From the NCBI RefSeq assembly GCF_041587335.1, contig NZ_JBFGYP010000002.1, forward strand, positions 3,928-67,927: a stretch of 64,000 nucleotides of DNA. Direction: 5' to 3'. The notes below the pieces were generated by a model. It saw only the letters and a list, made by a program, of their open reading frames with translations, had not been told where the DNA came from and made no database searches. The position numbers were made by a program, and so were the translations under genes. Below are positions 14,322 to 28,700 of this stretch, piece after piece (position 1 is the first letter of the stretch; the number at the start of each line of letters is the position of its first letter). This DNA comes from Halobacteriovorax sp. (lineage in GTDB: Bacteria; Bdellovibrionota; Bacteriovoracia; Bacteriovoracales; Bacteriovoracaceae).

Positions 14322-17300
14322 TTGAGACAGTTTCTAGTTAATATGGTATCAAATCCTGTGAGTTTTTCTAATAAATGTGCCTATTACTTTAACAATAATC
14401 AAAGAAAAATTGGAGATTCTCTCCTTTCTAGTAAGTTAATACGCATTTTTCATTCACAAGCTAACGAAATTAAAGCATATACGCTCTCCGATAAGATACA
14501 TAATATATCATTAGAATGGGTACAGTTAAAATCATATCAAGCAATAAAAGCAAGTTGCGACTGTAATGAGTTCCAAATAACCGAGTCCTGCCCTCACCTT
14601 TGGGCAGTGATAAAGGCAACAGATCATGAACAGTTTCCTCAGATGGGACAGTCCCTAGATAAGATAGACTTTATTAGTTCATTCACAGATATCAATCCAT
14701 TTGAGCAAAATAGAATAGATGTTTTAGATAAACTTAACCATGCCTTTGAAAAGCAAAAAATTGAACTTGAAACTCAATATAGTTTAGAAGAAGAGAAAGA
14801 AAAGAAACTAGGTTTCAAATTATTTGAAACCTATCCCATGCAAAATGGATTACTTAGAATAGACTTCACGATTGACAACAAAGTAGTTCAAGTTACCGAT
14901 AAGCTTATTGAAGGACTCTCAAGTTCTGATAAAGGACTAGTAGAGATTTTTCGAAGAATGACTACCGTTCAATCTAAAACGTATTGGCAAAGAAAAAATA
15001 TTCGAGGAAAAAATTCATTTTTTGAAATTCCTTACGAGAGTTTAGACTATTTACTTCCACTAATAATAGATTGCACACTAATAGATATATCTAATAATAA
15101 GCTCAAGTTTAACTCTAAAGAGTTATTAATAGCTCATAGTAAACTAGAGGACTCTACTGATTGGGAATTTATCCCCTATTTCAACTTCAATGGAGAAATA
15201 CTAAATATTGAAGAAGTAAAAATGATTGAAGGACTTGACCTTGCTCTATTTAAGAATCAAGTTTTAAAGGTAAATTATAGAGGATTAAAGCCACTTTTTA
15301 ATGAGTACTTAAGTGGTAAGACAAAATTCAACAAAGAGCAGCTGCCAAAGAAGGAGTTGAAAAGCTTTATTACAAAGCACCCTAATCTTGCAAACGTAGA
15401 AATCCCAAAAAGTATAAAGATTGATAGAGAAGAGATTGACCCTATTATTAGAATGAATTTAGATATCTCATCGGGACCTATTGGTACAGTGATCTGGGCC
15501 CAAATAATTTCAACATTTGAAGAGAATTGGCACTCTCCACTTAGCCCTCTTCCTCTTGATCAAATTGACCAGCGTATATTGAGGGTAAAGAACACTACTA
15601 AAGAAGAAGAGCTCCTTAGTTTAATTGCCACAACACTAAACTTAAATCTAAAAAATAAAGACTTTAGTAGAAAAATTGAAATCACAGCTGATGATTTTAA
15701 CAATAGAATATCTAAGCTCATTGAGAATAAAATAGAAATCTTTGCTAAGAATAAAAGAGTATCAGTCCCTAGAAGTATGGGTATAACACTTAAAACAGAA
15801 GATGACTGGTTTGAAGTAAAATCAAATCTGGAATTTGATGAAGAAAGCTTTCATACTCCTCAGATACTTGCGATGGCAAAAGACTCACAGGCACTCATTC
15901 CATTGAAGAATGGAGAGCTAGGCCTAGCTCCACTTGATTGGCTACAGAGGCATTTAAGATTAGAACATATGAGTTATATGGCTGATGAAAAAGTCATGCT
16001 AGCAAAGGATCATGTGCTCTACATGGATCTTCTCTTTGAAGAAAAACTACTTGAAACAGATACACCAAGTTACAGTACTCTTTTAACAAATCTAAAAAGT
16101 GCCAAGTCAGCTCCTGAGAAAGAAATTCCTAAGTCATTTAATGGAGAACTAAGAGACTACCAAAAGCAAGGGGTGGAATGGCTCAACTTTATAGACTCTC
16201 TCTCATTGGGAGGGTGTCTAGCTGACGAAATGGGTCTAGGAAAGACAGTTCAAATATTGTGTCACCTAGAAATACTGAGAACTCAAGGAAGAACAAAACA
16301 TCTAATTATTGTTCCTAAGTCTTTGATACATAACTGGAAAAAAGAAGTAGCAAAATTTTGTCCAAAAATGACTACAGTTGTCTATGAAGGACAAAGAGAA
16401 TCAAGAATAAAACTACTTGAACAAGATTTTGATATCATGTTTTGTACTTATGGAATTACTCGTAATGACTATGAAATACTTAGAGAAACAAGATTCGACA
16501 CGATTATTTTAGATGAGGCCCAGCATATAAAAAATGAATCCTCACTCACTTCAAAAAGTGTTCTACTACTTAATTCGAAAAGTCGCTTCATCGTAACAGG
16601 GACTCCTATTGAGAATAGTTTAAGTGAACTATTCACTTTATTTAGGTTCTTATCGCCAAAAGTTTTCAATCAGCAAAAAATATCAAAAGAAAACTTAACC
16701 GATGGAAATGAAAGTGTTGTTGAAAATATATTAAAAGGTTTAAGGCCTCTAATTCTTCGAAGACTAAAGAAAGATGTTTTAAAAGACCTACCAGATAAAA
16801 ATGAGTCAATTCTTCCAGTTTCACTATCAAACGATCAAACTAAAATCTATAATGAGTTAAAAGAGCACTATAGAACTAAGTTAATGGATAAAGTTCAAAA
16901 AGTTGGAATAAAGAAGAGTAAGGTGCATATACTAGAAGCTCTCCTCAGACTCAGACAAGCGGCTTGCCACCCAGGACTAATCAATCCACTGTATAAGGAT
17001 AGTGAAAGCTCGAAGTTAGAAATTTTGATTGAAAAACTTAAGGTTATTTCAAAGTCAGGAGAAAAAGCTCTTGTCTTTAGTCAATTCACCCAATTTTTAA
17101 AAATTGTACAAGAAAGACTGATAAAAGAAGGCATCGAATTTTCTTACTTAGATGGTCAGACAAATAATAGAGAAGAAGTAATAGATGAGTTTAAAGAACA
17201 AGAAAATAAAACTGCTTTTCTAATCTCACTAAAAGCTGGAGGATATGGCCTAAACCTAACTGAAGCTAGATACTGTTTCCTGCTAGACCCATGGTGGAAC

Positions 17301-17513
17301 CCTGCCGTTGAAGGCCAGGCGATAGATAGAATCCACAGAATTGGTCAAAAAAGTGAAGTTTATGCCATTAAACTACTCAGTGAGAATACAGTAGAAGAAA
17401 AAATCGTAGAGATGCAAAAAAGAAAGAAGCAACTGATCGATAACCTCTTCTTCTCAAATGCAACGACTCTTAAAGACATTGACTCAAGTGATTTAGTCTT
17501 TCTCTTCTCTTAA
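14322..17513 (+). CDS. SNF2-family helicase with N-terminal SWIM zinc finger
   Basis: SWIM CxC...CxH (CDCNEFQITESCPHLW). SNF2 motifs LADEMGLGKT, DEAQHIKN, TGTPIEN, SLKAGGYGLNLT, DPWWNPAVEGQAIDRIHRIGQ. ORF opens at TTG, alternative ATG at 14343. Confidence 0.9.
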   Translation: MRQFLVNMVSNPVSFSNKCAYYFNNNQRKIGDSLLSSKLIRIFHSQANEIKAYTLSDKIHNISLEWVQLKSYQAIKASCDCNEFQITESCPHLWAVIKATDHEQFPQMGQSLDKIDFISSFTDINPFEQNRIDVLDKLNHAFEKQKIELETQYSLEEEKEKKLGFKLFETYPMQNGLLRIDFTIDNKVVQVTDKLIEGLSSSDKGLVEIFRRMTTVQSKTYWQRKNIRGKNSFFEIPYESLDYLLPLIIDCTLIDISNNKLKFNSKELLIAHSKLEDSTDWEFIPYFNFNGEILNIEEVKMIEGLDLALFKNQVLKVNYRGLKPLFNEYLSGKTKFNKEQLPKKELKSFITKHPNLANVEIPKSIKIDREEIDPIIRMNLDISSGPIGTVIWAQIISTFEENWHSPLSPLPLDQIDQRILRVKNTTKEEELLSLIATTLNLNLKNKDFSRKIEITADDFNNRISKLIENKIEIFAKNKRVSVPRSMGITLKTEDDWFEVKSNLEFDEESFHTPQILAMAKDSQALIPLKNGELGLAPLDWLQRHLRLEHMSYMADEKVMLAKDHVLYMDLLFEEKLLETDTPSYSTLLTNLKSAKSAPEKEIPKSFNGELRDYQKQGVEWLNFIDSLSLGGCLADEMGLGKTVQILCHLEILRTQGRTKHLIIVPKSLIHNWKKEVAKFCPKMTTVVYEGQRESRIKLLEQDFDIMFCTYGITRNDYEILRETRFDTIILDEAQHIKNESSLTSKSVLLLNSKSRFIVTGTPIENSLSELFTLFRFLSPKVFNQQKISKENLTDGNESVVENILKGLRPLILRRLKKDVLKDLPDKNESILPVSLSNDQTKIYNELKEHYRTKLMDKVQKVGIKKSKVHILEALLRLRQAACHPGLINPLYKDSESSKLEILIEKLKVISKSGEKALVFSQFTQFLKIVQERLIKEGIEFSYLDGQTNNREEVIDEFKEQENKTAFLISLKAGGYGLNLTEARYCFLLDPWWNPAVEGQAIDRIHRIGQKSEVYAIKLLSENTVEEKIVEMQKRKKQLIDNLFFSNATTLKDIDSSDLVFLFS

Positions 17514-17577
17514 TTTCCCCCTTTTTCAAACTCTAATTCTAGATTAAAATAATTAAGTATCAAATTCTGAGGACCTT

Positions 17578-18324
17578 ATGAAAGTAAACGAAAAACTTGT
17601 TGATCTAACAAAAGCTGCAACAATATCTATAGTATTCACATTACTAATGTCTATTGGCTTTCACTTTACAAGCACTGGTCTATTCCATAGGATCTTTATT
17701 CTACTGGGGGGTAATTTCCTTGGAGGTGGTTACATTCAATGTTTAACCTATATTGCCTTCTTTTGGGCCTTCTTTGAGATTAGATTACTTCTAAGTAAAA
17801 TAAAAAATGAAAATAAAGCATTTAAAACAAAGCTACTACCTACTGGAGAAAAGCACTTAATTATTCCTTCGGAAATTAGCGATCTTCACCTGAAAGTTAC
17901 ATCACTAGATAAGAAGAAAGAACTTCTTCTATTTAGGATGATAACAAAAGCATGCCTGAAGTTTAGGGCCACGAAATCAATTCCGGAGATGATTGAAATA
18001 ATAAGTATTCAGACAGATATAAATAAAGAACTATCAGAGTCAGATCAATCAAACATTAGATATCTAACGTGGGTTATCCCATCGATAGGGTTTGTAGGAA
18101 CTGTACTGGGTATATCCCAGGCCTTAATGATTGCAAATAGCGGTGATATGGAGTTAATAACAGCAACACTGGGTGTGGCCTTCGACACAACTTTAGTAAG
18201 CCTACTACTTAGTATAATCATAATGTGGTTCTATCATAATCTTCTAAAAGAGAATGACTTACTTCACGCCAAAATAAAAGAGCACGTAATAGAGAATTTA
18301 ATCAACAGAATTGAGATAGAATAA
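17578..18324 (+). CDS. MotA/TolQ/ExbB-family proton-channel protein (small, about 4 TM)
   Basis: C-terminal channel signature IPSIGFVGTVLGISQAL...ATLGVAFDTTLVSLLLSIIIMWF. SD GAGGA upstream of the ATG. Stop overlaps the next start (TAATG). Confidence 0.8.
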   Translation: MKVNEKLVDLTKAATISIVFTLLMSIGFHFTSTGLFHRIFILLGGNFLGGGYIQCLTYIAFFWAFFEIRLLLSKIKNENKAFKTKLLPTGEKHLIIPSEISDLHLKVTSLDKKKELLLFRMITKACLKFRATKSIPEMIEIISIQTDINKELSESDQSNIRYLTWVIPSIGFVGTVLGISQALMIANSGDMELITATLGVAFDTTLVSLLLSIIIMWFYHNLLKENDLLHAKIKEHVIENLINRIEIE

Positions 18325-19181
18325 TGTCATCAAGAAGAGAAGTGAATGCCTTCAATATTTCATTCTTAGATTTACTATCCGGTGCACTTGGAGCCGTCAT
18401 CATTTTATTTGTGGCGGTACCAAAAGCAAAACAAGAAACTGAACACATAAAACCTCCCTCTCAAGAAAAAGAGCTGAAGGCAAAAAATCATGCATTACAA
18501 GCAGAAATTGAATCGCTAGAGATTAAGCTTGCTAAAATAAAAGCTGAAGCACCTCCTGTCATTGAAAAAGTTGAAACACCAAAAATAGATGAAGTTCCTA
18601 AGGTAGAAGAAGTTAAGCAAGGCATCCTTGATGTGGATGTTGGATTTAAATTTAAGGGTAAAAAGATTGTATTCTTAATAGATGTGTCTGGCTCAATGCA
18701 AACAATGGATAAAATGGGGCAAGTAAAGGCCGGACTCAAGATGCTCATAACCTCTATGCCTAAAAATTATGAAATAGACGTCATTCACTTTCCAGGAAGA
18801 TACAGTGCTAAGTACAGCTCACTTTGGAGCTATACTCAAGCACTCGGAGAAAGACAAAAAGGTGATGTCTACAGGTTTCTTAATAAGCTAAAACCAAAAG
18901 GAGCTACTCCAACTAGAAGTGCTCTAAAGTACGCCATAACTGCCTATCCAGATATAACAGATATTGTTCTACTCTCAGACGGGGCGCCAACGAAAGCTAA
19001 TTCAAGAGGGTACGATAGCATAGAAGAAATTCTTTCGGCCGTCAGAAAAGACAACTATAAGAAGATTCAAATTAACACTATTGGAGTGGGACCTGCCTTT
19101 TCGTTAAGATCGACAACTGCGGCCTCAGTCTTTCTTAAAACCTTGGCCGAAGAATCAGGTGGCTTCTTTTACGGTTTCTAG
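18324..19181 (+). CDS. MotB/ExbD-like Asp-TM anchor fused to coiled coil, Pro/Glu/Lys spacer and VWA (MIDAS) domain
   Basis: Single TM FNISFLDLLSGALGAVIILFV with Asp16. Heptad-like LQAEIESLEIKLAKIKAE. APPVIEKVETPKIDEVPKVEEV spacer. MIDAS D120-x-S-x-S (DVSGSM), GATPT, LLSDGAPT. Confidence 0.85.
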   Translation: MSSRREVNAFNISFLDLLSGALGAVIILFVAVPKAKQETEHIKPPSQEKELKAKNHALQAEIESLEIKLAKIKAEAPPVIEKVETPKIDEVPKVEEVKQGILDVDVGFKFKGKKIVFLIDVSGSMQTMDKMGQVKAGLKMLITSMPKNYEIDVIHFPGRYSAKYSSLWSYTQALGERQKGDVYRFLNKLKPKGATPTRSALKYAITAYPDITDIVLLSDGAPTKANSRGYDSIEEILSAVRKDNYKKIQINTIGVGPAFSLRSTTAASVFLKTLAEESGGFFYGF

Positions 19182-21682
19182 TTTATATCACCAAAAACAT
19201 CTGCTGCATTTCTTCTTAGCATCGACTTCGTCGTAAAATAAGTAATTAGAATACTTATAGATGTAACGACTACTATAGGTAAAATAATTAGAGGTAAGCT
19301 AAATACAAAGCTCGACTTAAATGCCACCTTTGAGAGAATAACACCTAGACCTAAGCTTAGTATACTTCCAATAAAAGATGAAAAAGCGCTAATTAAAGTC
19401 GTTTCAGTTAATACTATCTTAATAATTTGAGAATCTTTAAGTCCTAATATCTTTAGAAGGTTTAAATCTCTAAGTCTTATTATAAGCTGATGTCCAATTA
19501 GTGAGTAAAGAACCAGTACACCTACAAGGAAAACAAGAAAAGTCATCGATGTAAGAATTAGAACCATGCTCTCCATAATATTTGTGATTCTGCCAATAGT
19601 TCGAGTAATATCAATAACAGAAATATTTGGAAATTTCTTAAAGAGCTTTTGCTGTATTGTATCTATCTTAGTTCTATCTGCACTCACAGCTGACACAAAA
19701 GTCTTTGGGGCATCTTCAAGAACACCCTTTTGAAATTGAATGAAGAAATTTGGTCTAAAACTAGTCCACTTAATATCTCTTAGACCTACGATTTTAGCAG
19801 GTAGAGGAATACCAAAGATTTCAAATTCAAGTGTATCCCCGACGTCAACACCTAGCCTAGAAGCATACCTGTGCTCTAAAGTAATCTCTGCTGCTTCATT
19901 TTTATCAGGGTCGAATACACCTTTAGTTAAACGACCATCAGTTAATGATTCTGAAATATCTAATCCATCGCGGTAACTAAGATTAACGCCTCGATTTCTC
20001 ATTCGAATTGCTCTTTCTTCCTCTCTCGTTGTTGATTCTTTAACAGAAGATTGAACAACTTCTCCCTTAATCTTAGAAAGTCTTGATCTAATCATAGGGG
20101 CCATAACTAAGACTTCACTGTTGTCTTGTTCTTTAATAAATACATTTAAGTCTTCAACTTGCTCTGGTTGTATATCAAACAAAAAGAGTGATGGACCCTC
20201 ACCTTTTAACGGTCTTTCGAGTTCACTTAAAAGAACGTTTCTAAGAGTCGGTATCAACGTGATCATTGTTGTAGATATCATTAAACTTGAGAATATAAAA
20301 AGAGTCGAAACTCTATACCTAGTTAAAAAACCCCATGCGAGCTTAGAAGTGAGGCTTCCCTCTGTTGAGAGTCTTCTCAGTCTCTTTAAAAGAAAGCTAC
20401 CACCAAGAAATAAAAGTCCAAGTGATATGAAGAGAAAAGATGAGAAGATTGAACCTATTATAACAGAGTGACTAATATTAATAGATATAATGTAGAAAAA
20501 AACAATCCATGGTAAATATATAAGCCAAGACGAAGCTTTAGACTCTCCCTCATCTTCATGAGAAAATAAAAACTTATAATCTATATGTAGATAAGGGTAA
20601 ATAAGAGCAACACCTATAAACATAGGACTTAATACTCCTATTATTATAGGGAGAAGTAATGATGAATATGTATAAGTGAGTTGAAGGTTATATCCTAGTT
20701 GATTATTAAATAGATCAATAATAAACGGTAAGATAATTGGACCAAATGAAACAGCAATAAGCGAACTGATAATACTTAAAGTAAAGAGCTGTCCAATGAG
20801 TATACAAAAAACAGTCGACTTTTTAAGTCCTAAAAATTGAAATATTGCGATCTCTTTTCTTCTTTTATAAAGAAAACTTCTAAAGAGGTACATCATCGCC
20901 ATTGTTGCTAAAAATAACCCACTCAAACTAACAAGACCTAGAAAGTCATTTAAATAATTCAGGATACGACTAACTTGTTGGGATGATTTTTCTGGGGTTA
21001 TTACTCTAGCGCTACTGTCATTAATAGAAAGGCTCAATTGCTTTAGTTGTTCTTTTGTGACTTTCTCTTTAATTTTAAATGAATATGTATTGGTGTAAGT
21101 ACTTCCTTCTTTAATTAAATTTGCGAGCTTTAAACCTTCTGGAGATATGTAGACTCTAGGAGCAATCCCTCCCATTTGAAAACTTTGCTGTCCATCATCA
21201 ATGACAAGACCTGCGACAAGAAATTCTGCATCTCCGATCTTTATATTATCTCCGACAGATATATCCAGTTGTCTTTGGAGTTCAGGGTAAATATAAGCTT
21301 CCTTATCACTAGAGAACTTAAGAGGACGCTGATCCTTTAATAGAATTTGTCCATAGAATGGAAACTTACTCTCAATAACTCTTATACTGGCTAATCTGGA
21401 ATTATTATTTGCTCCCGCCATTGAGAATAAGCGAATACTTTTTGCGTGATCACTTATGCTCACCACAGAAGTGACATTTTTTAAATCAATTTCTTGTCTA
21501 GATGAAATAGCAAGGTCAGCTCCTAAAATAGACTTAGATCGACTATCTAGCTCTTCGGAAAAGGACGTTTTAAAAGACTGAATAGATACTAGACCTATAA
21601 GACCAATTGATAAGTTTAGAATAAAAATTAAGACAAACTTAGGAGAACTTTTTAACTCACGAAATATTAGCTTAAGTATCAT
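19178..21682 (-). CDS. FtsX-family ABC transporter permease, YbbP-like (two FtsX modules)
   Basis: 834 aa with about 10 TM in two repeated FtsX-like blocks separated by large loops. 1-nt overlap with the upstream YbbA-like ATPase gene. Confidence 0.85.
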   Translation of the reverse strand: MILKLIFRELKSSPKFVLIFILNLSIGLIGLVSIQSFKTSFSEELDSRSKSILGADLAISSRQEIDLKNVTSVVSISDHAKSIRLFSMAGANNNSRLASIRVIESKFPFYGQILLKDQRPLKFSSDKEAYIYPELQRQLDISVGDNIKIGDAEFLVAGLVIDDGQQSFQMGGIAPRVYISPEGLKLANLIKEGSTYTNTYSFKIKEKVTKEQLKQLSLSINDSSARVITPEKSSQQVSRILNYLNDFLGLVSLSGLFLATMAMMYLFRSFLYKRRKEIAIFQFLGLKKSTVFCILIGQLFTLSIISSLIAVSFGPIILPFIIDLFNNQLGYNLQLTYTYSSLLLPIIIGVLSPMFIGVALIYPYLHIDYKFLFSHEDEGESKASSWLIYLPWIVFFYIISINISHSVIIGSIFSSFLFISLGLLFLGGSFLLKRLRRLSTEGSLTSKLAWGFLTRYRVSTLFIFSSLMISTTMITLIPTLRNVLLSELERPLKGEGPSLFLFDIQPEQVEDLNVFIKEQDNSEVLVMAPMIRSRLSKIKGEVVQSSVKESTTREEERAIRMRNRGVNLSYRDGLDISESLTDGRLTKGVFDPDKNEAAEITLEHRYASRLGVDVGDTLEFEIFGIPLPAKIVGLRDIKWTSFRPNFFIQFQKGVLEDAPKTFVSAVSADRTKIDTIQQKLFKKFPNISVIDITRTIGRITNIMESMVLILTSMTFLVFLVGVLVLYSLIGHQLIIRLRDLNLLKILGLKDSQIIKIVLTETTLISAFSSFIGSILSLGLGVILSKVAFKSSFVFSLPLIILPIVVVTSISILITYFTTKSMLRRNAADVFGDIN

Positions 21683-22353
21683 TAATTAGTACCAGCTTCT
21701 AAGTGACCATGACTTAAGAGTAAAGATTTCTTACATCTCGCAGCTAGTTGTAGTTCATGAGTCACAAGAATTAGTCCCATATTTTCTTTCTCAACTAAAT
21801 CAAATAGTAGATTCATAATAGTAGTTCCAGTATCTTCATCTAAGCTACCACTTGGCTCATCTGCAAGGATAAGTTTTGGTCGATTAGACATGGCCCTAGC
21901 AATGGCCACTCTTTGCTTCTCACCTCCACTCAATTGATTAGGAAAATGATTTGCACGCTCTCCTAAACCAACACTAACTAATAATGACATGGCCTTTTCT
22001 TTTGCATCAGGTTCATTAATAATTTCTAAAGGAAGCATTACATTCTCAAGAGCGCTCAAATGCTCAATCAAATGAAACTGTTGAAAAACTACACCGATAG
22101 ACTTAGCTCTTAACTCAGTCATCTCTTGTTGAGAGTAATGAGTTATATCCTTATCTAAAAAGCTTATTTTCCCACTATCCACACTCTCTATTCCACTAAG
22201 AATTGATAGAAGAGTTGATTTACCGCTACCAGACTTACCAACAATAGCGAGAGTGTCCTTTTCTTCTAAAGACAGTGAGGCGCCTTTAAGGACGTTTATA
22301 ACATTGCCACCTTGGCTAAAGCTCTTATGTAAATTATTGCATTCTAAAATCAT
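21682..22353 (-). CDS. ABC transporter ATP-binding protein, YbbA/LolD-like
   Basis: Walker [12 protein letters not shown], signature [14 protein letters not shown], Walker [13 protein letters not shown]. Confidence 0.9.
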
Positions 22354-22949
22354 TTCAGTGACCTAAAGTAAGGTAACAAGTTTTCGGCCATTTTTTTATG
22401 ACCTAACTCATTAGGGTGAATTCCATCAGATAAATTGAGCTCTTTCTTAGCTGCTACACCCTCAAGAAGAAATGGTATAAGTGTTATTTTGTATTCTTTT
22501 TTCAATTCTAAAAACATATCTCTGAACTTTTTAGTATAGTCTGCCCCATAATTAGGAGGCATCTGCATTCCTGCGAGGATAACCTTCATCTTCTTTTCTT
22601 TTGCAAGAGAGATTATAGAGGCTAAGTTCTTCTTAGATGAGCCTAGCTCAATTCCTCGAAGTCCATCATTAGCACCAAGGGCCAAAATCAAAACTTCAGG
22701 CTTAGATCGAAGAAACCACTTTAATCTAGAGAGACCACTAGCTGTAGTTGAACCGGAAACACTTCCATTGATTATTTCAACTTTAGTATCATGCTTGGAT
22801 AATAGTAAATCTTTTAAAAGATACGGGTATGATTTCTCTTTAGAAATTCCATAACCTTCAGTTAGGGAATCTCCAATAAAGAGAATTTTAGTATCTGCTA
22901 GGACCGAAGTAGAAATAAAGAATAGTAGAATAATAATTTTTTTAGCCAT
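22350..22949 (-). CDS. tesA: SGNH/GDSL hydrolase, TesA-like arylesterase/thioesterase I
   Basis: Signal peptide, GDSL block ILFIGDSLTEGYG, GANDG, catalytic DGIHPN. 4-nt overlap with the YbbA-like gene. Confidence 0.85.
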   Translation of the reverse strand: MAKKIIILLFFISTSVLADTKILFIGDSLTEGYGISKEKSYPYLLKDLLLSKHDTKVEIINGSVSGSTTASGLSRLKWFLRSKPEVLILALGANDGLRGIELGSSKKNLASIISLAKEKKMKVILAGMQMPPNYGADYTKKFRDMFLELKKEYKITLIPFLLEGVAAKKELNLSDGIHPNELGHKKMAENLLPYFRSLK

Positions 22950-24939
22950 AGATTAAAATTTTAAAGGCCTTGAAAAAGAATGACAACTCTTTAAAAGCTG
23001 ACTCATTGCGACTATACCTTAGACGTTGATAAACCAATATAAGTTCAACCAAGTTTGATGAGCTATCCTCAATTAGTTCAATAAGTTGTGGCTCAGTGAG
23101 AACAGTATAGTTTGACCATTTGAGTGAACGATACTTATTTACACAGATAAAAAGTAAGAAACTTTTAATTTTCTCCCTAAGAAATAGAACTAAAACTAGC
23201 AACAAACAAAGAATTAGATATGGAAAATAGAAGAATAGTGAAGAAGTGTGCTTAAAGCTAACAAATTTCTTAAATAAGTTTCTCTGTGTCTCTAAATCAT
23301 AGTTAAAAAAGAGCGTTCCTGTCTTATAGTAGATATTTTGAATATACTGCTTCCAGTCACTTAATATTCCTGATCGACTTGAAACAAAATCTTCAATATC
23401 TGTATCTCTACTGCCAAGCTTTTCAAATTCAAAGAATGTATCTGCCCCATACATTATTCTAGCAGGAGATACGACACTGACAGCGTCAAAGCGTGTCCAG
23501 ATTCCATTCTCATCAAGATACTCTACCCACGCGTGTGCATCCTTCTCTGTAACAACATAGAAAGTTCCAACTTCATTGAAAATTCCTCCCTGATATCCAA
23601 GAACGACTCTTGAAGGAATACCAAATAAGCGAAATAAGGTCGCACTAGCAGATGCATAATGACCACAAAAGCCGACCTTTCTTCTAAATAAGAACTCATC
23701 AAGAGGATTTTTACTCTTATAAACCCCTGGAGAAGTAGAATAAGTAAAACTACTCCTGAAGAAGCTTTTTAAATGTTTTGCAACAAGAGTAGGTTTATTC
23801 ACTAAAGAGAGGTGCGAATCTCTATACTTAATGACTTCAGAATCAGCGGGTAAATCTGTTTGTAAATAAACGTCTTTATAGTTATCTAAAAGCTTCGCTG
23901 GCAAATCAGGTCCAAGCCATCCTTTATACCTAGATTTTTGATTTCTAAATGTATTTGAACGATACAGGTTTCCTTTAAGATTTATTAAAGAGCCCATAGA
24001 ACTAAGTGCCACTTTCCTAGTTTTCTCTAAGGTAAATAATGGACCACTCGTAAGGGTGTCATAAGTAACAAAGTAGTCAAATTTCTTGAAGATTTTTTCA
24101 GTGTTTCTCTTTTCCGGCAACTTAGATTTTTCCCAACTAAAAAGTTTATTTTTAGCCAAAATCTGCCCTCTCCAGTACATATCAAGTCTTTTAATTCTCT
24201 TAGTAAACTTCACATGAAAAACAGCACTAGGATCCTTTATTATTTCAGAGATATCTCCCGGACTTAGTTCTTCACTAAACCCTGTTGTTGCTTTACTTGT
24301 AGAAAATAAAAATCCTCCAAAGTTAATTCTCGGAAATGAAAGAAAGAGAATAACTACTAATGGGGCTCCAAATAAAGAAAATCGAAGAATGTTCTTTATA
24401 CTCTTTCTAAAAACTAATTTCTCGACATTAACTTGCTGTACTAGGTAGAGGTTGCAGAAACAAACAAGCAAACTAATAAAGATGATAAATAAATAATAAA
24501 AATCCTCTACTAATAGACTCAGAGATGTGACATGTAGAAACTGAATAAGTATTAGAGAATATATATCTCTCTTAGTTTTCAATTCAAACATCTTAAGTAA
24601 GACAAGAGTTGAAAATAATATACTTGCAGGCTCAAAACCTCTCCATGAGCCATATTCACTATAAATTATGAAGATTGAACCAATGAGAAATGGAACTCTC
24701 AAAAAAGTTAACAAGCGACTATTAGTCAATTTGAACAAGAGTATAGTAATTATAATTGAGCTAAATAAAGTCAGTGAATATATAGAAAAGTAAGGAATAA
24801 AGAATATAGTCAGTAAGATATAGAAAACAAGAGAAATTTTTGTAAATAGCTTACTCACACTTTTCTCCAAGTCTAGCAAGGATACGAAGGCACTCATACA
24901 GATGGACTTTATTATTTCCTTTAGAAGTAACTTCACCAT
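22942..24939 (-). CDS. membrane transglutaminase-like protein (TgpA-type: N-terminal multi-TM, TGase core, C-terminal TM)
   Basis: Cys-His-Asp core: GFCGHYASASATLFRLFGIPSRVV, DAHAWVEY, then D. ORF-track start overlaps the DUF58 gene by 89 nt. An in-frame GTG at 24858 (8-nt overlap) is a plausible true start. Confidence 0.85.
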   Translation of the reverse strand: MVKLLLKEIIKSICMSAFVSLLDLEKSVSKLFTKISLVFYILLTIFFIPYFSIYSLTLFSSIIITILLFKLTNSRLLTFLRVPFLIGSIFIIYSEYGSWRGFEPASILFSTLVLLKMFELKTKRDIYSLILIQFLHVTSLSLLVEDFYYLFIIFISLLVCFCNLYLVQQVNVEKLVFRKSIKNILRFSLFGAPLVVILFLSFPRINFGGFLFSTSKATTGFSEELSPGDISEIIKDPSAVFHVKFTKRIKRLDMYWRGQILAKNKLFSWEKSKLPEKRNTEKIFKKFDYFVTYDTLTSGPLFTLEKTRKVALSSMGSLINLKGNLYRSNTFRNQKSRYKGWLGPDLPAKLLDNYKDVYLQTDLPADSEVIKYRDSHLSLVNKPTLVAKHLKSFFRSSFTYSTSPGVYKSKNPLDEFLFRRKVGFCGHYASASATLFRLFGIPSRVVLGYQGGIFNEVGTFYVVTEKDAHAWVEYLDENGIWTRFDAVSVVSPARIMYGADTFFEFEKLGSRDTDIEDFVSSRSGILSDWKQYIQNIYYKTGTLFFNYDLETQRNLFKKFVSFKHTSSLFFYFPYLILCLLLVLVLFLREKIKSFLLFICVNKYRSLKWSNYTVLTEPQLIELIEDSSSNLVELILVYQRLRYSRNESAFKELSFFFKAFKILIYG

Positions 24940-25741
24940 CGACTAAGAGTATTGTCTCTATAGACGAGTCATAAGATTTAAATAGTTGATCTGTGACTTT
25001 ACCAAGATAGTTTATATTATCTTTATGATTAACTGATAGAACTACTGCATTCGAGTCTTGTCCAGAGAAGTTCTTCGTCAAAAGACCCCTTCCTCTAGCA
25101 AATGCTTTCCAGTCAATATGCTTCCAAGAATCTGTATCTCTGAACTTCCTATGATCTAAGAATTCATCTTTTGTTTCAATATTATAAATATTTTCACTTT
25201 CAGATCCTTTACTATAGAGAGATTCTCTATAGATGTCTCCAGCGACTACTCTCTTTGGATATACAATGACCTGTTTATTTGAGTCAATATACTTCCAGGC
25301 CCTAAATATCCCTAAAGGAAATGTCGTGTGAATCTTTATACGAGACATCTTTAATATTCCACAGTGATCAGATTTTAGAGAAAACCTTAACTTGTTGTTC
25401 TCATTACTAATAATGGTCGCCTTCTCATTTACACTCAATTCAGAAGTCGTATAAAGAGACATCGAACTTGAGTATTCCCTATTTGAAATATTTACTGAGA
25501 CTAATTCCTCATTACCACACTCAATGAATTCATCGTGAAAATGAAAAGTCTTCAACTTTGAGATTGTAGAATTTGTTGAAAATGCACAAACCACAATAAT
25601 AGAAGTTAAAAAGAAAGTAATAAAATAAGAGAATGGATGACCAAACGTAATAGCAATTATAAAAACTAGGAATGTTATAAAAATAAGCCCTAGACCAAAT
25701 CGAGAAGGTAGAATATATGTCTTATTTGAAGATAACTTCAT
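24851..25741 (-). CDS. DUF58-domain protein (MoxR-associated)
   Basis: DHRKFRDTDSWKHIDWKAFARGRGLLTKNF matches the DUF58 core pattern. N-terminal 2 TM. Directly abuts the MoxR gene. Confidence 0.8.
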   Translation of the reverse strand: MKLSSNKTYILPSRFGLGLIFITFLVFIIAITFGHPFSYFITFFLTSIIVVCAFSTNSTISKLKTFHFHDEFIECGNEELVSVNISNREYSSSMSLYTTSELSVNEKATIISNENNKLRFSLKSDHCGILKMSRIKIHTTFPLGIFRAWKYIDSNKQVIVYPKRVVAGDIYRESLYSKGSESENIYNIETKDEFLDHRKFRDTDSWKHIDWKAFARGRGLLTKNFSGQDSNAVVLSVNHKDNINYLGKVTDQLFKSYDSSIETILLVDGEVTSKGNNKVHLYECLRILARLGEKCE

Positions 25742-26671
25742 TTATCTAATGGCCACATTCTCAAGCGCTTCTCTAATAATATCCTGAGAAGCAGTGAGCC
25801 CTTCTCTTAAGTTAAGTCTATGAGAAAGAACATAAGGGGCGATAGACTGTACATCGTGAGGTGTTACATAATCTCTTTTTTCAAAGAATGCAGAGGCTTT
25901 AGACGCCAGCAGTAGATCCCTACCTGCTCTTAAAGATAACTTCACACCATTATCGAGGTTTTCTCTAACGTATTCTAAGAAGTCTAATACATAATCTATA
26001 AGAGAGTCTTCAATATGAGTCTTTTGAATCATTTTATATATAGATAAATACTCATCTAAACTTACAAATGAATGTAGCCCATTAATTTGTTCACGAATGT
26101 TTTCGCCCATCAAGATCTTCTTTTCATACTCTCTAGTAGGCAGACCAATAGTTAAGCTCATAAAAAATCTATCTAATTGAGACTCTGGTAATGGGTTTGT
26201 TCCAATTTGATCGAGAGGATTCTGAGTGGCCACAACAATGAATGGCTCATCTAACTCATACTCTCCTCCGTCAACCGTAATATACCTCTCCTCCATGGCC
26301 TGAAGTAGTGCACTTTGTGTTTTAGGAGATGCTCTATTGAGCTCATCACCAAGAACCATTCGGCTAAAGATTGGACCTCTATTAAATACAAAGCTAGATG
26401 TTTCTTTATCAAAAACAGATGTCCCAAGTATATCCGACGCAAGAAGATCATTTGTAAACTGTATCCTAGACAGATTTAAGCCAAAAATATGAGAAAGTAG
26501 ATAAACTAAAGTGGTCTTCCCAACCCCAGGAACATCCTCTATCAGTAAATGTCCCTTTGATAACATACTAATAAAAGCAATTTTGAGCTGCTCCTCTTTC
26601 CCAAGAAAGATAGAGTTACAAGTATCAAAAGCATGCAAAATTTTGTCATTTAAATATGTAGATGTTTTCAC
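25742..26671 (-). CDS. MoxR-family AAA+ ATPase
   Basis: Walker A EDVPGVGKTT, Walker B/sensor LGDELNRASPKTQSALLQAMEE, VVATQNPLDQIGTNPLPESQLDRF. Confidence 0.9.
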   Translation of the reverse strand: MKTSTYLNDKILHAFDTCNSIFLGKEEQLKIAFISMLSKGHLLIEDVPGVGKTTLVYLLSHIFGLNLSRIQFTNDLLASDILGTSVFDKETSSFVFNRGPIFSRMVLGDELNRASPKTQSALLQAMEERYITVDGGEYELDEPFIVVATQNPLDQIGTNPLPESQLDRFFMSLTIGLPTREYEKKILMGENIREQINGLHSFVSLDEYLSIYKMIQKTHIEDSLIDYVLDFLEYVRENLDNGVKLSLRAGRDLLLASKASAFFEKRDYVTPHDVQSIAPYVLSHRLNLREGLTASQDIIREALENVAIR

Positions 26672-26857: not shown

Positions 26858-27961
26858 TTGATCAATACTATCGCTTTCAACTTATATATCTATAAAAAAG
26901 GGCATATTTTGAAATTTGCTTATTTTGGTACATTATTCATTATTACAAGTTGCGCTGGTCCTTATCATCCATTTGGATCAAACTATTCAGTATCAAAAAT
27001 AAGTAATGACTTATTTAAAAAATCTAAACAACATAAAGCTGGGCAAGACCTAGATAGTAAAAATATAATCTTTTCACCAAAGTATCAGGTTCTCCATGAG
27101 AGTCGAAACTTCTCTATAGAGATTAAAAGAAATGAAACCTCTTCAGAAGAGAAAATTTACTTTTTTTACAATAATGTTGATATCACAGACCAAGTTGAGG
27201 CCATTTCAAATGTAGACAGAACAAGTACTAAGATCATTTATACAATAGCAAACTTAACACTTCCTCCAGTAGAGTCTCACAACTTTAGTGTGATCTACAA
27301 ATCTTCACCTGAAGCAGCTCCTATTGGAAAAACTTATCCTTTCCCAGACTGTGATATACAGGACAACCCGTTGCTATCTGCTGCAAAGATCAAGGCAAGA
27401 AGATCTGTAAAGAATGCACTAAAAAAAATAGCTGAAGAAACTGAACTAAATTCAGCTCTGATGGCAGGTCTCATAGAACAAGAGTCAAGCTTTAACCCTA
27501 AGGCTGTGAGTTGGGCAAAAGCAGTTGGTCTAACTCAAATTACCCCAGTAGCGGAGAAACAACTATTAGAAAATAAAGAGTATTATGCATATCCCAAGTG
27601 GGGTCGCTTACCAGCTTCAGTCTTAAAGACCTATATTGAAACAGGAAAAATTAATAAAGATAACGACTGGAAACTAGACCCAATACAATCAATAAAGGGT
27701 GGTTTTGACTACCTGGAGTATATTTCTAACTATTGGAAAAAGCCTCAAAATATAGAAGCATTCCCAGAGCAAATTAAGAATAATGATGAAGAGCTCACTT
27801 CAATAATTCTTGCAAGTTATAATTCTGGTCCTAGTAGAGTTAAAAGAAATTTACTTAAAAGAGGAATGTACTGGCTGGAAGCAAGAGAGCTGAAAGAAGC
27901 AAGAAAGTATGTCTATAAAGTTAAAAGTTACTGTAGGCAGTATGCCATAGAGAGAGATTAA
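26858..27961 (+). CDS. lytic transglycosylase (SLT domain), probable lipoprotein
   Basis: SLT catalytic block GLIEQESSFNPKAVSWAKAVGLTQITP, then YNSGP. ORF opens at TTG. An in-frame TTG at 26909 gives KFAYFGTLFIITSC, a lipobox-like signal. Confidence 0.8.
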   Translation: MINTIAFNLYIYKKGHILKFAYFGTLFIITSCAGPYHPFGSNYSVSKISNDLFKKSKQHKAGQDLDSKNIIFSPKYQVLHESRNFSIEIKRNETSSEEKIYFFYNNVDITDQVEAISNVDRTSTKIIYTIANLTLPPVESHNFSVIYKSSPEAAPIGKTYPFPDCDIQDNPLLSAAKIKARRSVKNALKKIAEETELNSALMAGLIEQESSFNPKAVSWAKAVGLTQITPVAEKQLLENKEYYAYPKWGRLPASVLKTYIETGKINKDNDWKLDPIQSIKGGFDYLEYISNYWKKPQNIEAFPEQIKNNDEELTSIILASYNSGPSRVKRNLLKRGMYWLEARELKEARKYVYKVKSYCRQYAIERD

Positions 27962-27962
27962 T

Positions 27963-28700
27963 ATGACAAAACGTCCAACACTTCTCATTTTCACATGTCT
28001 TGTAATGATAGGAATAATTATCTCTATTCCACTCCAAATCTTAGCTCAGACAGAGGTTACAGCTATTAACTATAATATACTCTTGCAGCAGATTACAGTC
28101 TTCAACTGGCTCGTAATGATCTCTTGCTTTATGACAATGATGTTTGCCATCAATGGACATAAGCTACTACCTGTATCTGTTATATTCTTACTTTTATCAA
28201 TTCATATTAATAACTACTTTGTTTTCAAGTATGCTGTAAATATAGATTGGTACATCCCCCTCATCGCATCTTGCCTATCGAGTATTCTTGCATTTTCCTT
28301 TTTATTAAATAAGAACATAAGATATACAGCAAATAATCAGGACAAGAGATGGTGGTTAATTCCAAAGAGGCATCAAAAAACACTTCCGATCTGGATAGTT
28401 CTAGATGATAGTCGTTGCGTCCTAGCACATACTTTTGATCTATCTAAAACAGGTACATTTATTTCAACAATAGATGGTCTAGAGAATAAACTTCAAAGCG
28501 AACTTGAACTTGGTAGAGATGTAAAAATATTAATCGGAGATAAAGATGATATTGAATTTCACTGCAATGCCTCTGTTGTAAGAAAAACACAAGCAAAGGG
28601 CAACTACCCTAGCGGTATTGGGCTTCACTTTCATAACATCCCTATTATAGAAAAGTTCCACTTAAGTAGAATTCTCAATAACCCTAGTCTTGGTCTTTGA
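27963..28700 (+). CDS. membrane-anchored PilZ-domain protein
   Basis: About 4 TM helices, then a PilZ pattern: KRHQK (degenerate RxxxR), DLSKTG (DxSxxG), VVRK...SGIGLHF. ATG lies 1 nt after the SLT gene stop. Confidence 0.7.
   Translation: MTKRPTLLIFTCLVMIGIIISIPLQILAQTEVTAINYNILLQQITVFNWLVMISCFMTMMFAINGHKLLPVSVIFLLLSIHINNYFVFKYAVNIDWYIPLIASCLSSILAFSFLLNKNIRYTANNQDKRWWLIPKRHQKTLPIWIVLDDSRCVLAHTFDLSKTGTFISTIDGLENKLQSELELGRDVKILIGDKDDIEFHCNASVVRKTQAKGNYPSGIGLHFHNIPIIEKFHLSRILNNPSLGL

Follow-up and report, generated by a model that had tools for sequence, protein, structure and literature searches.

What kind of machine is encoded when the gene for a TolQ-like channel protein runs directly into the gene for a protein with a single Asp-bearing transmembrane (TM) helix and a VWA domain? 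The question is raised by two open reading frames (ORFs), here called A and B, at positions 17578–19181 of a 64,000-nucleotide stretch of contig NZ_JBFGYP010000002.1 from the predatory marine bacterium Halobacteriovorax sp. (assembly GCF_041587335.1, positions 3,928 to 67,927 of the forward strand; hereafter 'the window', to whose first letter all positions refer). The initial annotation, made from the sequence alone, had described the pair as a stator of the MotAB/ExbBD type whose Asp-TM subunit ends in a VWA head with a metal ion-dependent adhesion site (MIDAS), and had not recognised it as belonging to any described class. Our analysis confirms the observation as a whole and supports the interpretation in part: the anatomy of channel subunit, Asp-TM subunit and MIDAS VWA head stands, while the ideas of an undescribed class, a TonB-style spacer and a MotA-like channel do not. 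We consider it probable that A and B form an A5B2 ion-driven unit of the TolQR/ExbBD type, most likely powered by protons, and, judged by sequence, the pair is a minimal, single-B, accessory-free version of a class that has recently been described in silico as TPH-vWA/TolQ-like. The features to which we refer are as follows.

17569–17573, forward strand: ribosome-binding site GAGGA, 4 nucleotides (nt) before the ATG of ORF-A, read from the sequence
17578–18324, forward strand: ORF-A, 248 amino acids (aa), putative pentameric 'A' component, TolQ/ExbB-fold channel subunit
17590–17667, forward strand: A aa 5–30, additional N-terminal hydrophobic helix (hydropathy 1.69; helix H5–30 in the AlphaFold2 (AF2) model)
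18058–18243, forward strand: A aa 161–222, C-terminal TM hairpin, predicted to form the pore, with P168, G171, G174, T175 and D203-T204-T205
18322–18326, forward strand: TAATG stop/start overlap of A and B (context GAA-TAATG-TCA), a 1-nt overlap indicating translational coupling
18324–19181, forward strand: ORF-B, 285 aa, putative dimeric 'B' component (axle), made up of an Asp-TM anchor, a coiled coil and a VWA head
18324–18356, forward strand: B aa 1–11, basic N-tail MSSRREVNAFN (family consensus M-x-K-R-R-E)
18357–18425, forward strand: B aa 12–34, TM or trans-pore helix ISFLD16LLSGALGAVIILFVAVPK (Asp16 codon 18369–18371)
18468–18551, forward strand: B aa 49–76, four-heptad coiled coil KELKAKNHALQAEIESLEIKLAKIKAEA (heptad score 0.82)
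18549–18614, forward strand: B aa 76–97, Pro/Glu/Lys/Val spacer, peculiar to the window copy and not in most homologues
18639–19178, forward strand: B aa 106–285, VWA domain with complete MIDAS (D120-x-S122-x-S124, T195/T197, D219)

Both ORFs have the lengths and coordinates first assigned to them, and the TAATG coupling between them reads as it had been described. Hexamers resembling a promoter between 17523 and 17553 were no commoner than in shuffled sequence, and we claim no promoter there. An ORF scan of the window found no second MotA/ExbB-type gene and no second anchor-type gene, and a Pfam scan of the neighbouring ORFs, several of which have no match of any kind, found no ExbD, TolR or MotB domain. 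Neighbourhoods were compared across the best 80 related loci, all from different species. Nearly all of these are labelled Bacteriovoracia, with a few generic labels and one metagenome-assembled genome labelled Sphingobacteriaceae, which we take as mis-binned. A lies directly upstream of B on the same strand in 80/80 loci, so the conservation of the two as neighbours, proposed as a check in the initial annotation, holds throughout. In 41 loci the two genes overlap by 4 nt and in 13 by 1 nt, while most of the rest have gaps of 0–11 nt. B is a single gene in the window and at each of the 79 related loci that allowed it to be called. Clustering of all flanking genes across the 80 loci yielded no conserved third gene, only housekeeping synteny.

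The nearest named relatives are proteins of Halobacteriovorax marinus (identities of 72% and 58% for B, 82% and 71% for A); the orthologues of the pair in H. marinus SJ are CBW26221 and CBW26222. We collected 608 homologues of B, all with generic public names, of which the best 120 at full length were used for conservation, and a scan of one genome per species placed the B family in 124 species genomes. Viral contigs contained no homologue of the pair, and plasmid records gave a single, unannotated match from Rhizobium, which is uninformative. A and B are an obligate, self-contained two-gene module of single-copy, vertically inherited core genes of Bacteriovoracia, set among housekeeping genes. 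That the pair is kept across the 124 species genomes suggests a core function at the envelope of these predators. H. marinus has a separate tol-pal locus and a TonB-family protein, both listed in the supplement of PMC12204202, which sets the pair apart from the Tol and Ton motors of that species.

As anticipated in the initial annotation, ORF-A matches the Pfam family MotA_ExbB above its gathering score (E = 2.8e-10, aa 131–231). The channel motifs IPSIGFVGTVLG and AFDTTL are present, with PSxGFxGT and AFDTT kept in 114/114 full-length homologues. The AF2 model of A has a mean predicted local distance difference test score (pLDDT) of 83, and a Foldseek search with it returned TolQ as the best match (template modelling score, TM-score, 0.66–0.73), followed by ExbB (~0.5) and MotA (~0.4). 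The channel formerly read as MotA/ExbB-type is therefore TolQ/ExbB-like in fold, and not MotA-like. Relationships in sequence are more remote: the NCBIfam equivalog models for tolQ and exbB score 20.8 bits against a cut-off of 221 and 23.9 against 135, those for MotA and PomA reach 14–20 bits against cut-offs of 340–380, E. coli TolQ scores only 11 bits with the A-family profile, and phmmer links TM3–TM4 of A to MotA and PomA at E values of about 0.007–0.15. An exhaustive profile search showed that A-type proteins form a distinct subfamily with the signature P[ST]xGF[IV]GT...AF[DN]TT, of which 80 clusters (at 50% identity) match at E ≤ 1e-30, a number that rises to 1,216 when the limit is E ≤ 1e-10. 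Some A-like representatives are 500–600 aa long; we rejected the idea that these are A-B fusions, the extra length being coiled-coil tails.

The C-terminal TM hairpin is the best-conserved region of A, with a mean entropy of 0.72 bits across 77 species. Profile-guided alignment equates P168, T175 and T205 of A with P138, T145 and T178 of TolQ and with P141, T148 and T181 of ExbB, which structures have identified as conserved pore residues around the essential Asp of ExbD (PMC12215075). Both pore threonines, T175 and T205, are invariant among the homologues of A. So is Asp203 (nt 18184–18186), which immediately precedes the two pore threonines in the final TM helix (AFDTT); the corresponding residue is Ile176 in TolQ, Leu179 in ExbB and Asn in part of the wider family. 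Asp203 may have a part in ion coupling or in the contact that A makes with B. The helix at aa 5–30 is weakly conserved in sequence (2.23 bits) and is probably a fourth TM helix without counterpart in TolQ or ExbB, so that a count of four TM helices, three TolQ-like and one additional, is plausible as a predicted topology.

Subunit B has one strongly hydrophobic segment (aa 14–32), and the single Asp-bearing TM helix of the initial annotation is borne out: Asp16 and the motif [SA][FL]LD[LI][LI][ST]GALGAVIIL are found in 120/120 homologues. The TM sequence, ISFLDLLSGALGAVIILFVAV, has no His and no SHLS motif. By the positive-inside rule and by analogy with the N-in topology of ExbD, TolR and MotB, the basic N-tail would be cytoplasmic. 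Across 77 species, mean entropy is 0.16 bits in the TM core (aa 15–28), compared with 1.39 in the VWA head and 2.70 in the linker, and 12/23 TM positions are invariant. Such constraint on a helix containing Asp16 points to more than a passive anchor, which would not need it.

Following the TM helix, the coiled coil is a family feature, with a median heptad score of 0.70 compared with 0.30 in shuffled linkers, and it coincides with a helix at aa 47–75 in the AF2 model (pLDDT 63–71). The Pro/Glu/Lys/Val spacer behind it is real in the window copy, but the family does not share it: the linker varies from 52 to 100 aa, is the least conserved part of the protein and has a median Pro fraction of 0.056. 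We therefore do not retain the proposal of a rigid TonB-style spacer; the conserved element is the coiled coil, within a linker of variable length.

The head is well defined. Pfam matches above cut-off cover aa 114–282 (VWA_3, 2.9e-15; VWA_2, 4.5e-11; VWA, 2.6e-08), and the full MIDAS is present as described (DVSGS at aa 120–124, GATPT at 193–197 and SDGAPT at 218–223). The MIDAS residues are invariant, DxSxS being found in 120/120 homologues, as is the C-terminal GFFxGF. In the AF2 model the head has a pLDDT of about 90 or more, and Foldseek relates it to ITIH1, the VWA domain of Cav alpha2delta, CLCA1, the pilus adhesin SpaC and the integrin I-domain. The modelled head of B is thus, with high confidence, a canonical MIDAS VWA domain whose nearest structural neighbours are VWA domains for adhesion and ligand binding.

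The combination of these two subunits has a precedent. A study of June 2025 (Mol Biol Evol, section 8 and Fig. 4c–d; PMC12204202) described TM-tethered vWA proteins, named 'TPH-vWA', that tightly co-occur with tolQ homologues at loci with no tolR or exbD gene nearby. According to this study the proteins lack the SHLS/His motif and have a TolR/ExbD-like 'trans-pore helix' with a conserved Asp; in AlphaFold 3 models a TolQ-like pentamer encloses the Asp pair in a ring of Thr residues, and the complexes were modelled as 5:2 motors (PMC12204202). The family was reported 'predominantly in heterologous pairs', mainly from Proteobacteria and Verrucomicrobia, with function unknown, and the main text does not mention Bacteriovoracia in connection with it (PMC12204202). 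The statement that the pair is not a described stator class can therefore not be kept. It had also been considered that the pair might be an already named component of a known cluster; the class has indeed been described, though outside any gliding, Tol, Ton or Bat cluster.

The window pair agrees with the published description in several respects: a tolQ-like (MotA_ExbB) gene is tightly adjacent to a vWA gene in 80/80 loci, the scanned neighbouring ORFs of the cluster include no tolR-, exbD- or motB-type gene, the one TM helix of B is N-terminal and has a conserved Asp but not the SHLS/His motif of TolA and TonB, the C terminus of B has the vWA fold, and the TolQ-like subunit contributes a Thr ring (T175 and T205 of A). 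Homology extends to proteobacterial operons. Haliea, Woeseiaceae and marine metagenome loci with an A-like gene, here called gamma-type, have a fixed gene order: a TPR protein, a PEGA/FGE-sulfatase protein, a small secreted ORF, the A-like gene, a protein of ~425 aa and two VWA paralogues (~363 and ~333 aa). Both paralogues start with RRxxxFSLSFLD[IVC]xxCGFGA. The anchor profile built from the window family scores them at 24–33 bits (E values of 1e-9 to 1e-11), compared with 7.3 bits for the best background ORF, and the full-length B profile matches the Haliea, Woeseiaceae and marine paralogue pairs at E values of 1e-14 to 1e-18. The paralogues align with B from end to end, with a full MIDAS in paralogue 1 and a partly degraded one in paralogue 2, and the distant A-like profile scores A of the window at 207 bits. 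We identify the gamma-type loci with the published family because the two descriptions match, and both A and B of the window are thus homologous in sequence to description-matched operons of the class.

The window pair differs from these operons chiefly in what it lacks. It has one B gene, which implies a homodimer, where the class usually has a heterologous pair (B1 of ~363 aa and B2 of ~333 aa); its A gene runs directly into B, whereas the gamma type has the ~425-aa gene between them; there are no TPR, PEGA-FGE-sulfatase, small secreted or lipoprotein genes; and the host clade is Bacteriovoracia (Bdellovibrionota). Homologues of the gamma-operon accessory genes were sought in the window and at the 80 related Bacteriovoracia loci, and none was found. 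Taken together, the homology to the gamma type, the single B, the direct overlap and the missing accessory genes lead us to place the pair, on sequence, as the minimal form of the class.

Two of the gamma-type accessory proteins deserve description. The small secreted protein (72–130 aa, with a low-complexity middle) is encoded directly upstream of the A-like gene (4773–4991 in L084, 4725–4988 in L085 and 4447–4839 in L087) and ends in a conserved acidic ...SE[DE]L[SA][VI]xFP[VT]DI motif, which could be a ligand for the MIDAS heads; the protein has no counterpart in the window. The conserved protein between the A-like gene and the VWA paralogues has ~425–455 aa (5800–7071 in L084, 5840–7126 in L085 and 5817–7184 in L087) and is without Pfam match, save for a C-terminal FHA domain in L087. 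In metagenome loci, 1.25–1.4 kb almost always separate A from the first gene for a partner.

How, then, might the pair work? Beyond the gene anatomy, conservation, fold assignments, pore-residue equivalence and homology to proteobacterial paired-VWA systems, which the analysis shows, we infer a 5:2 stoichiometry, ion flow at Asp16, rotation, a periplasmic head and transmission of force to a ligand. Conserved adjacency, the invariant Asp-bearing TM helix, the pore Pro and Thr residues of A and the lack of any other B-type gene nearby all fit A5B2 anatomy. Five TolQ-fold copies of A would enclose a B homodimer, whose trans-pore helix would set Asp16 beside the ring of T175 and T205, and ions passing the Asp16 site would make the A ring rotate about the B dimer. 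The classical peptidoglycan-binding or TolR/ExbD-type periplasmic domain would be replaced in B by an output part consisting of a dimeric coiled-coil shaft, a flexible linker (52–100 residues) and two periplasmic MIDAS VWA heads. Through its metal site the head would grip an acidic residue of an envelope partner, which the motor would then pull or twist, or by which it would be anchored. With a median of 81 linker residues (~12 nm if helical), peptidoglycan or the periplasmic domains of outer-membrane proteins would be likelier targets than the cell surface.

Several observations count against this reading. A linker of that length may fall short of the outer membrane. No Pfam or NCBIfam profile links the anchor of B to ExbD, TolR or MotB, a 45-position anchor profile searched against all PDB sequences found no stator anchor, and hmmsearch of the anchor against the E. 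coli ExbD, TolR and MotB proteins gave negative bit scores; the only match to a classical stator was a marginal one to ZorB (E = 0.035). Profile searches thus place the N terminus of B in none of the MotB, ExbD or TolR families, formally the outcome that the initial annotation had named as speaking against its reading. We count this result as uninformative because a single TM helix is too short for profile signal, and the likeness of the anchor to classical B subunits is at the motif level only (basic tail, hydrophobic-L-D-L-L and a helix end A-x-P). Mutual information between the TM helix of B and the columns of A followed the background and was dominated by phylogeny, and the AF2 monomer of B has low confidence in the TM helix and linker. 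The 80 loci and the window contain no ligand candidate gene near the pair. Literature on the H. marinus accessions and on MotA together with FGE-sulfatase, FHA or vWA held nothing beyond PMC12204202 and no experimental data on family members. Finally, the gamma-type loci were equated with the Idiomarina-seeded family of PMC12204202 by matching descriptions, not by sequence.

Among classical motors, the pair can be compared first with TolQR and ExbBD. A has the fold of their channel subunits, with TM-scores reaching 0.73, and keeps the Pro and Thr residues of their pores, and B shares with their smaller subunits a short basic N-tail, a single TM helix, an Asp near its cytoplasmic end and a helix end of a small residue followed by Pro. 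B differs, however, in having a coiled coil and a VWA domain where TolR and ExbD have their periplasmic domain (no ExbD match at E ≤ 1) and in a TM sequence unrelated at the profile level; no separate TolA or TonB transducer accompanies the pair, and A has the additional N-terminal hydrophobic helix and the invariant Asp203 beside the pore Thr. With MotAB and PomAB the pair shares the general A5B2 logic and the phmmer matches in TM3–TM4, but A fits the MotA fold poorly (~0.4), B has neither a MotB_plug nor an OmpA-like domain, and there is no flagellar gene context. The GldLM/PorLM motors of gliding and type IX secretion in Bacteroidota have a dimeric single-TM subunit with a long periplasmic shaft that carries the output outward without binding peptidoglycan. 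The pair has a shaft-type output in common with them as a mechanistic analogy only: Pfam results at E ≤ 1 include no GldL or GldM family, and the head domain and charged residues differ.

If the model holds, no simpler example would be known of this recently proposed class of proton-driven envelope machine: two small genes, with one B and no accessory genes, would encode a TolQ-like 5:2 motor whose axle runs straight into an integrin-like, metal-dependent adhesion domain. Its small, single-B make-up would make it a convenient experimental model for asking how 5:2 motors turn rotation into periplasmic force. The novelty is limited, as the class is already in the literature as an in-silico proposal; what is newly added is the minimal, single-B Bacteriovoracia clade.

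Other A-like loci indicate that the anchor occurs with more than one head. The A-like gene of L088 has one partner gene behind it, for a 332-aa protein that joins the same anchor to a VWA-like head. The partner in L089 (225 aa) likewise has this anchor, at 35 bits, and also a coiled coil, but its head of ~100 aa is a different one, with a weak DUF2135 match in place of VWA. Over the gamma-type partners and those of L088 and L089 together, scores with the window anchor profile span 24–35 bits, again compared with 7.3 bits for the best background ORF. As a tentative extension, which we think possible but doubtful, the invariant Asp-TM anchor, with the consensus basic tail-F-x-[LI]-[SA]-[FL]-L-D-x3-[GC]-[AG]-[LF]-G-A, would act as a portable trans-pore module and mark out a large unnamed branch of 5:2 motors. 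In this branch a TolQ-like ring, from a subfamily whose clusters at 50% identity number at least 1,200, would drive periplasmic heads that can be exchanged, and the Bacteriovoracia pair would be the minimal homodimeric form. Under this extension, the pair may have been kept throughout this predatory clade for an envelope task powered by the proton motive force, for example gripping or pulling a wall or outer-membrane partner in prey attachment or invasion, and Asp203 of A could mean an ion-coupling chemistry unlike that of TolQ and ExbB.

The surroundings of two such loci are of note in their own right. The A-like locus of L089 (1–6433) adjoins a diversity-generating retroelement (bAvd, RVT_1) and a fusion of a Ser/Thr kinase with an FGE-sulfatase domain, a typical target fold of these elements. 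In L090 (1648–9915) the A-like gene stands among FHA-domain proteins, a PP2C phosphatase, Ser/Thr kinase-FHA and trypsin-FHA proteins and two VWA proteins, and no anchor-bearing partner was detected for it. The L090 cluster suggests that some A-like branches are wired into phospho-signalling systems.

Alternatives to an A5B2 motor that acts through its VWA heads differ mainly in what the head is for. It might instead only fix B to a static part of the envelope, as the OmpA-like domain does for MotB, so that the rotating A pentamer acts through its conserved cytoplasmic domain (aa 73–160) on a partner in the cytoplasm or inner membrane. That domain is moderately conserved (1.42 bits) with C126, K128 and E137 invariant, VWA domains are adhesion and anchoring modules, and the short linker suits peptidoglycan better than the outer membrane. 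We nevertheless regard an anchored stator of this kind as unlikely: the cytoplasmic domain is small and of the TolQ/ExbB type, not the enlarged torque interface of MotA (PMC12505986), and no conserved gene for a cytoplasmic partner lies nearby.

A sensory or defence-like role, in which ligand binding by the VWA head or release from the wall would open an ion leak through A and so signal stress or depolarize the cell, appears improbable. It draws on the clusters in which distant A-like genes occur (with FHA, PP2C, Ser/Thr kinase, kinase-FGE-sulfatase and diversity-generating retroelement genes) and on weak similarity to the anti-phage system Zorya, namely PADLOC matches to ZorA (E = 1.4e-4) and ZorB (E = 0.035) and a ZorD-like SNF2 helicase gene upstream of the pair. 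The signalling accessory genes, however, have no homologue in the window or in related loci, and the pair is a vertical single-copy unit among housekeeping genes in 80 Bacteriovoracia loci. The SNF2 gene adjoins the pair in only 2/80 loci, which makes the Zorya-like appearance coincidental; A, at 248 aa, is without the long tail of ZorA (~500–700 aa), there is no ZorC, no defence-system family was found among the scanned neighbours, and viral contigs, as noted, have no homologue of the pair. The Zorya-like defence reading that the helicase had prompted was rejected on the SNF2 count, the missing ZorA tail and the housekeeping context.

We see only a slight chance that the pair belongs to gliding or focal-adhesion machinery of the AglRQS/Glt-CglB type, with B as a CglB-like VWA adhesin on an Agl-like motor. 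In Myxococcus, CglB is a VWA adhesin coupled to the TolQR-like Agl motor (PMC9946355), a gliding role of vWA transducers has been speculated upon (PMC12204202), and B has a weak match to the NCBIfam model gliding_CglB. That match, though, reaches 15 bits where the cut-off is 200, CglB is a lipoprotein of the outer membrane whose lipoprotein signal stands where B has its inner-membrane Asp-TM anchor, and no glt or agl genes are conserved beside the pair.

MoxR ATPases classically work with VWA proteins, and a MoxR/DUF58-like/TgpA cluster 3.8 kb downstream (22942–26671) together with a weak NCBIfam BatB match could make B its partner in the style of Bat/MoxR-VWA systems, with A adjacent by accident, but this is very improbable and was rejected, as the cluster is syntenic in 11/80 loci and on the opposite strand, not in one operon with B and with an ABC-transporter/lipase operon in between, the BatB match is 13 bits against a cut-off of 350, and A and B are adjacent in 80/80 loci with translational coupling.

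The remaining genes around the pair are described here for completeness. Upstream, at 14322–17513 (forward strand), lies the SNF2 gene, whose 1063-aa product has a helicase core and a SWIM-like Zn-finger motif (CDCNEF...CPHLWA) and matches PADLOC DpdE and ZorD and NCBIfam 'pilus_reg_Snf2', all far under their cut-offs. Three overlapping co-directional genes follow the pair on the reverse strand (19178–22949), encoding a MacB-type permease (834 aa, two FtsX domains and MacB_PCD), an ABC ATPase (223 aa) and a GDSL lipase/thioesterase (199 aa), a set that corresponds to ybbP, ybbA and tesA of E. coli. The stop of the permease gene convergently overlaps the 3′ end of ORF-B. At about 35 other loci (L009, 10846–11466 on the reverse strand, and ~34 further Bacteriovoracia loci), the gene converging on B is one for a putative lipoprotein of 206 aa without Pfam match, which in most cases overlaps the stop of B by 3 nt and is absent from the window. 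Next on the reverse strand is the MoxR cluster, with a TgpA-like transglutaminase (TgpA_N and Transglut_core), a DUF58-like protein of 296 aa without Pfam match and a MoxR AAA_3 ATPase (E = 3.5e-55); the FtsX/ABC/GDSL operon and this cluster are syntenic with the pair in just 10–11 of the 80 loci. Further downstream, at 26858–28700 on the forward strand, a gene for an SLT-domain lytic transglycosylase (367 aa) precedes one for a polytopic membrane protein (245 aa) with a C-terminal PilZ domain, which binds cyclic di-GMP.

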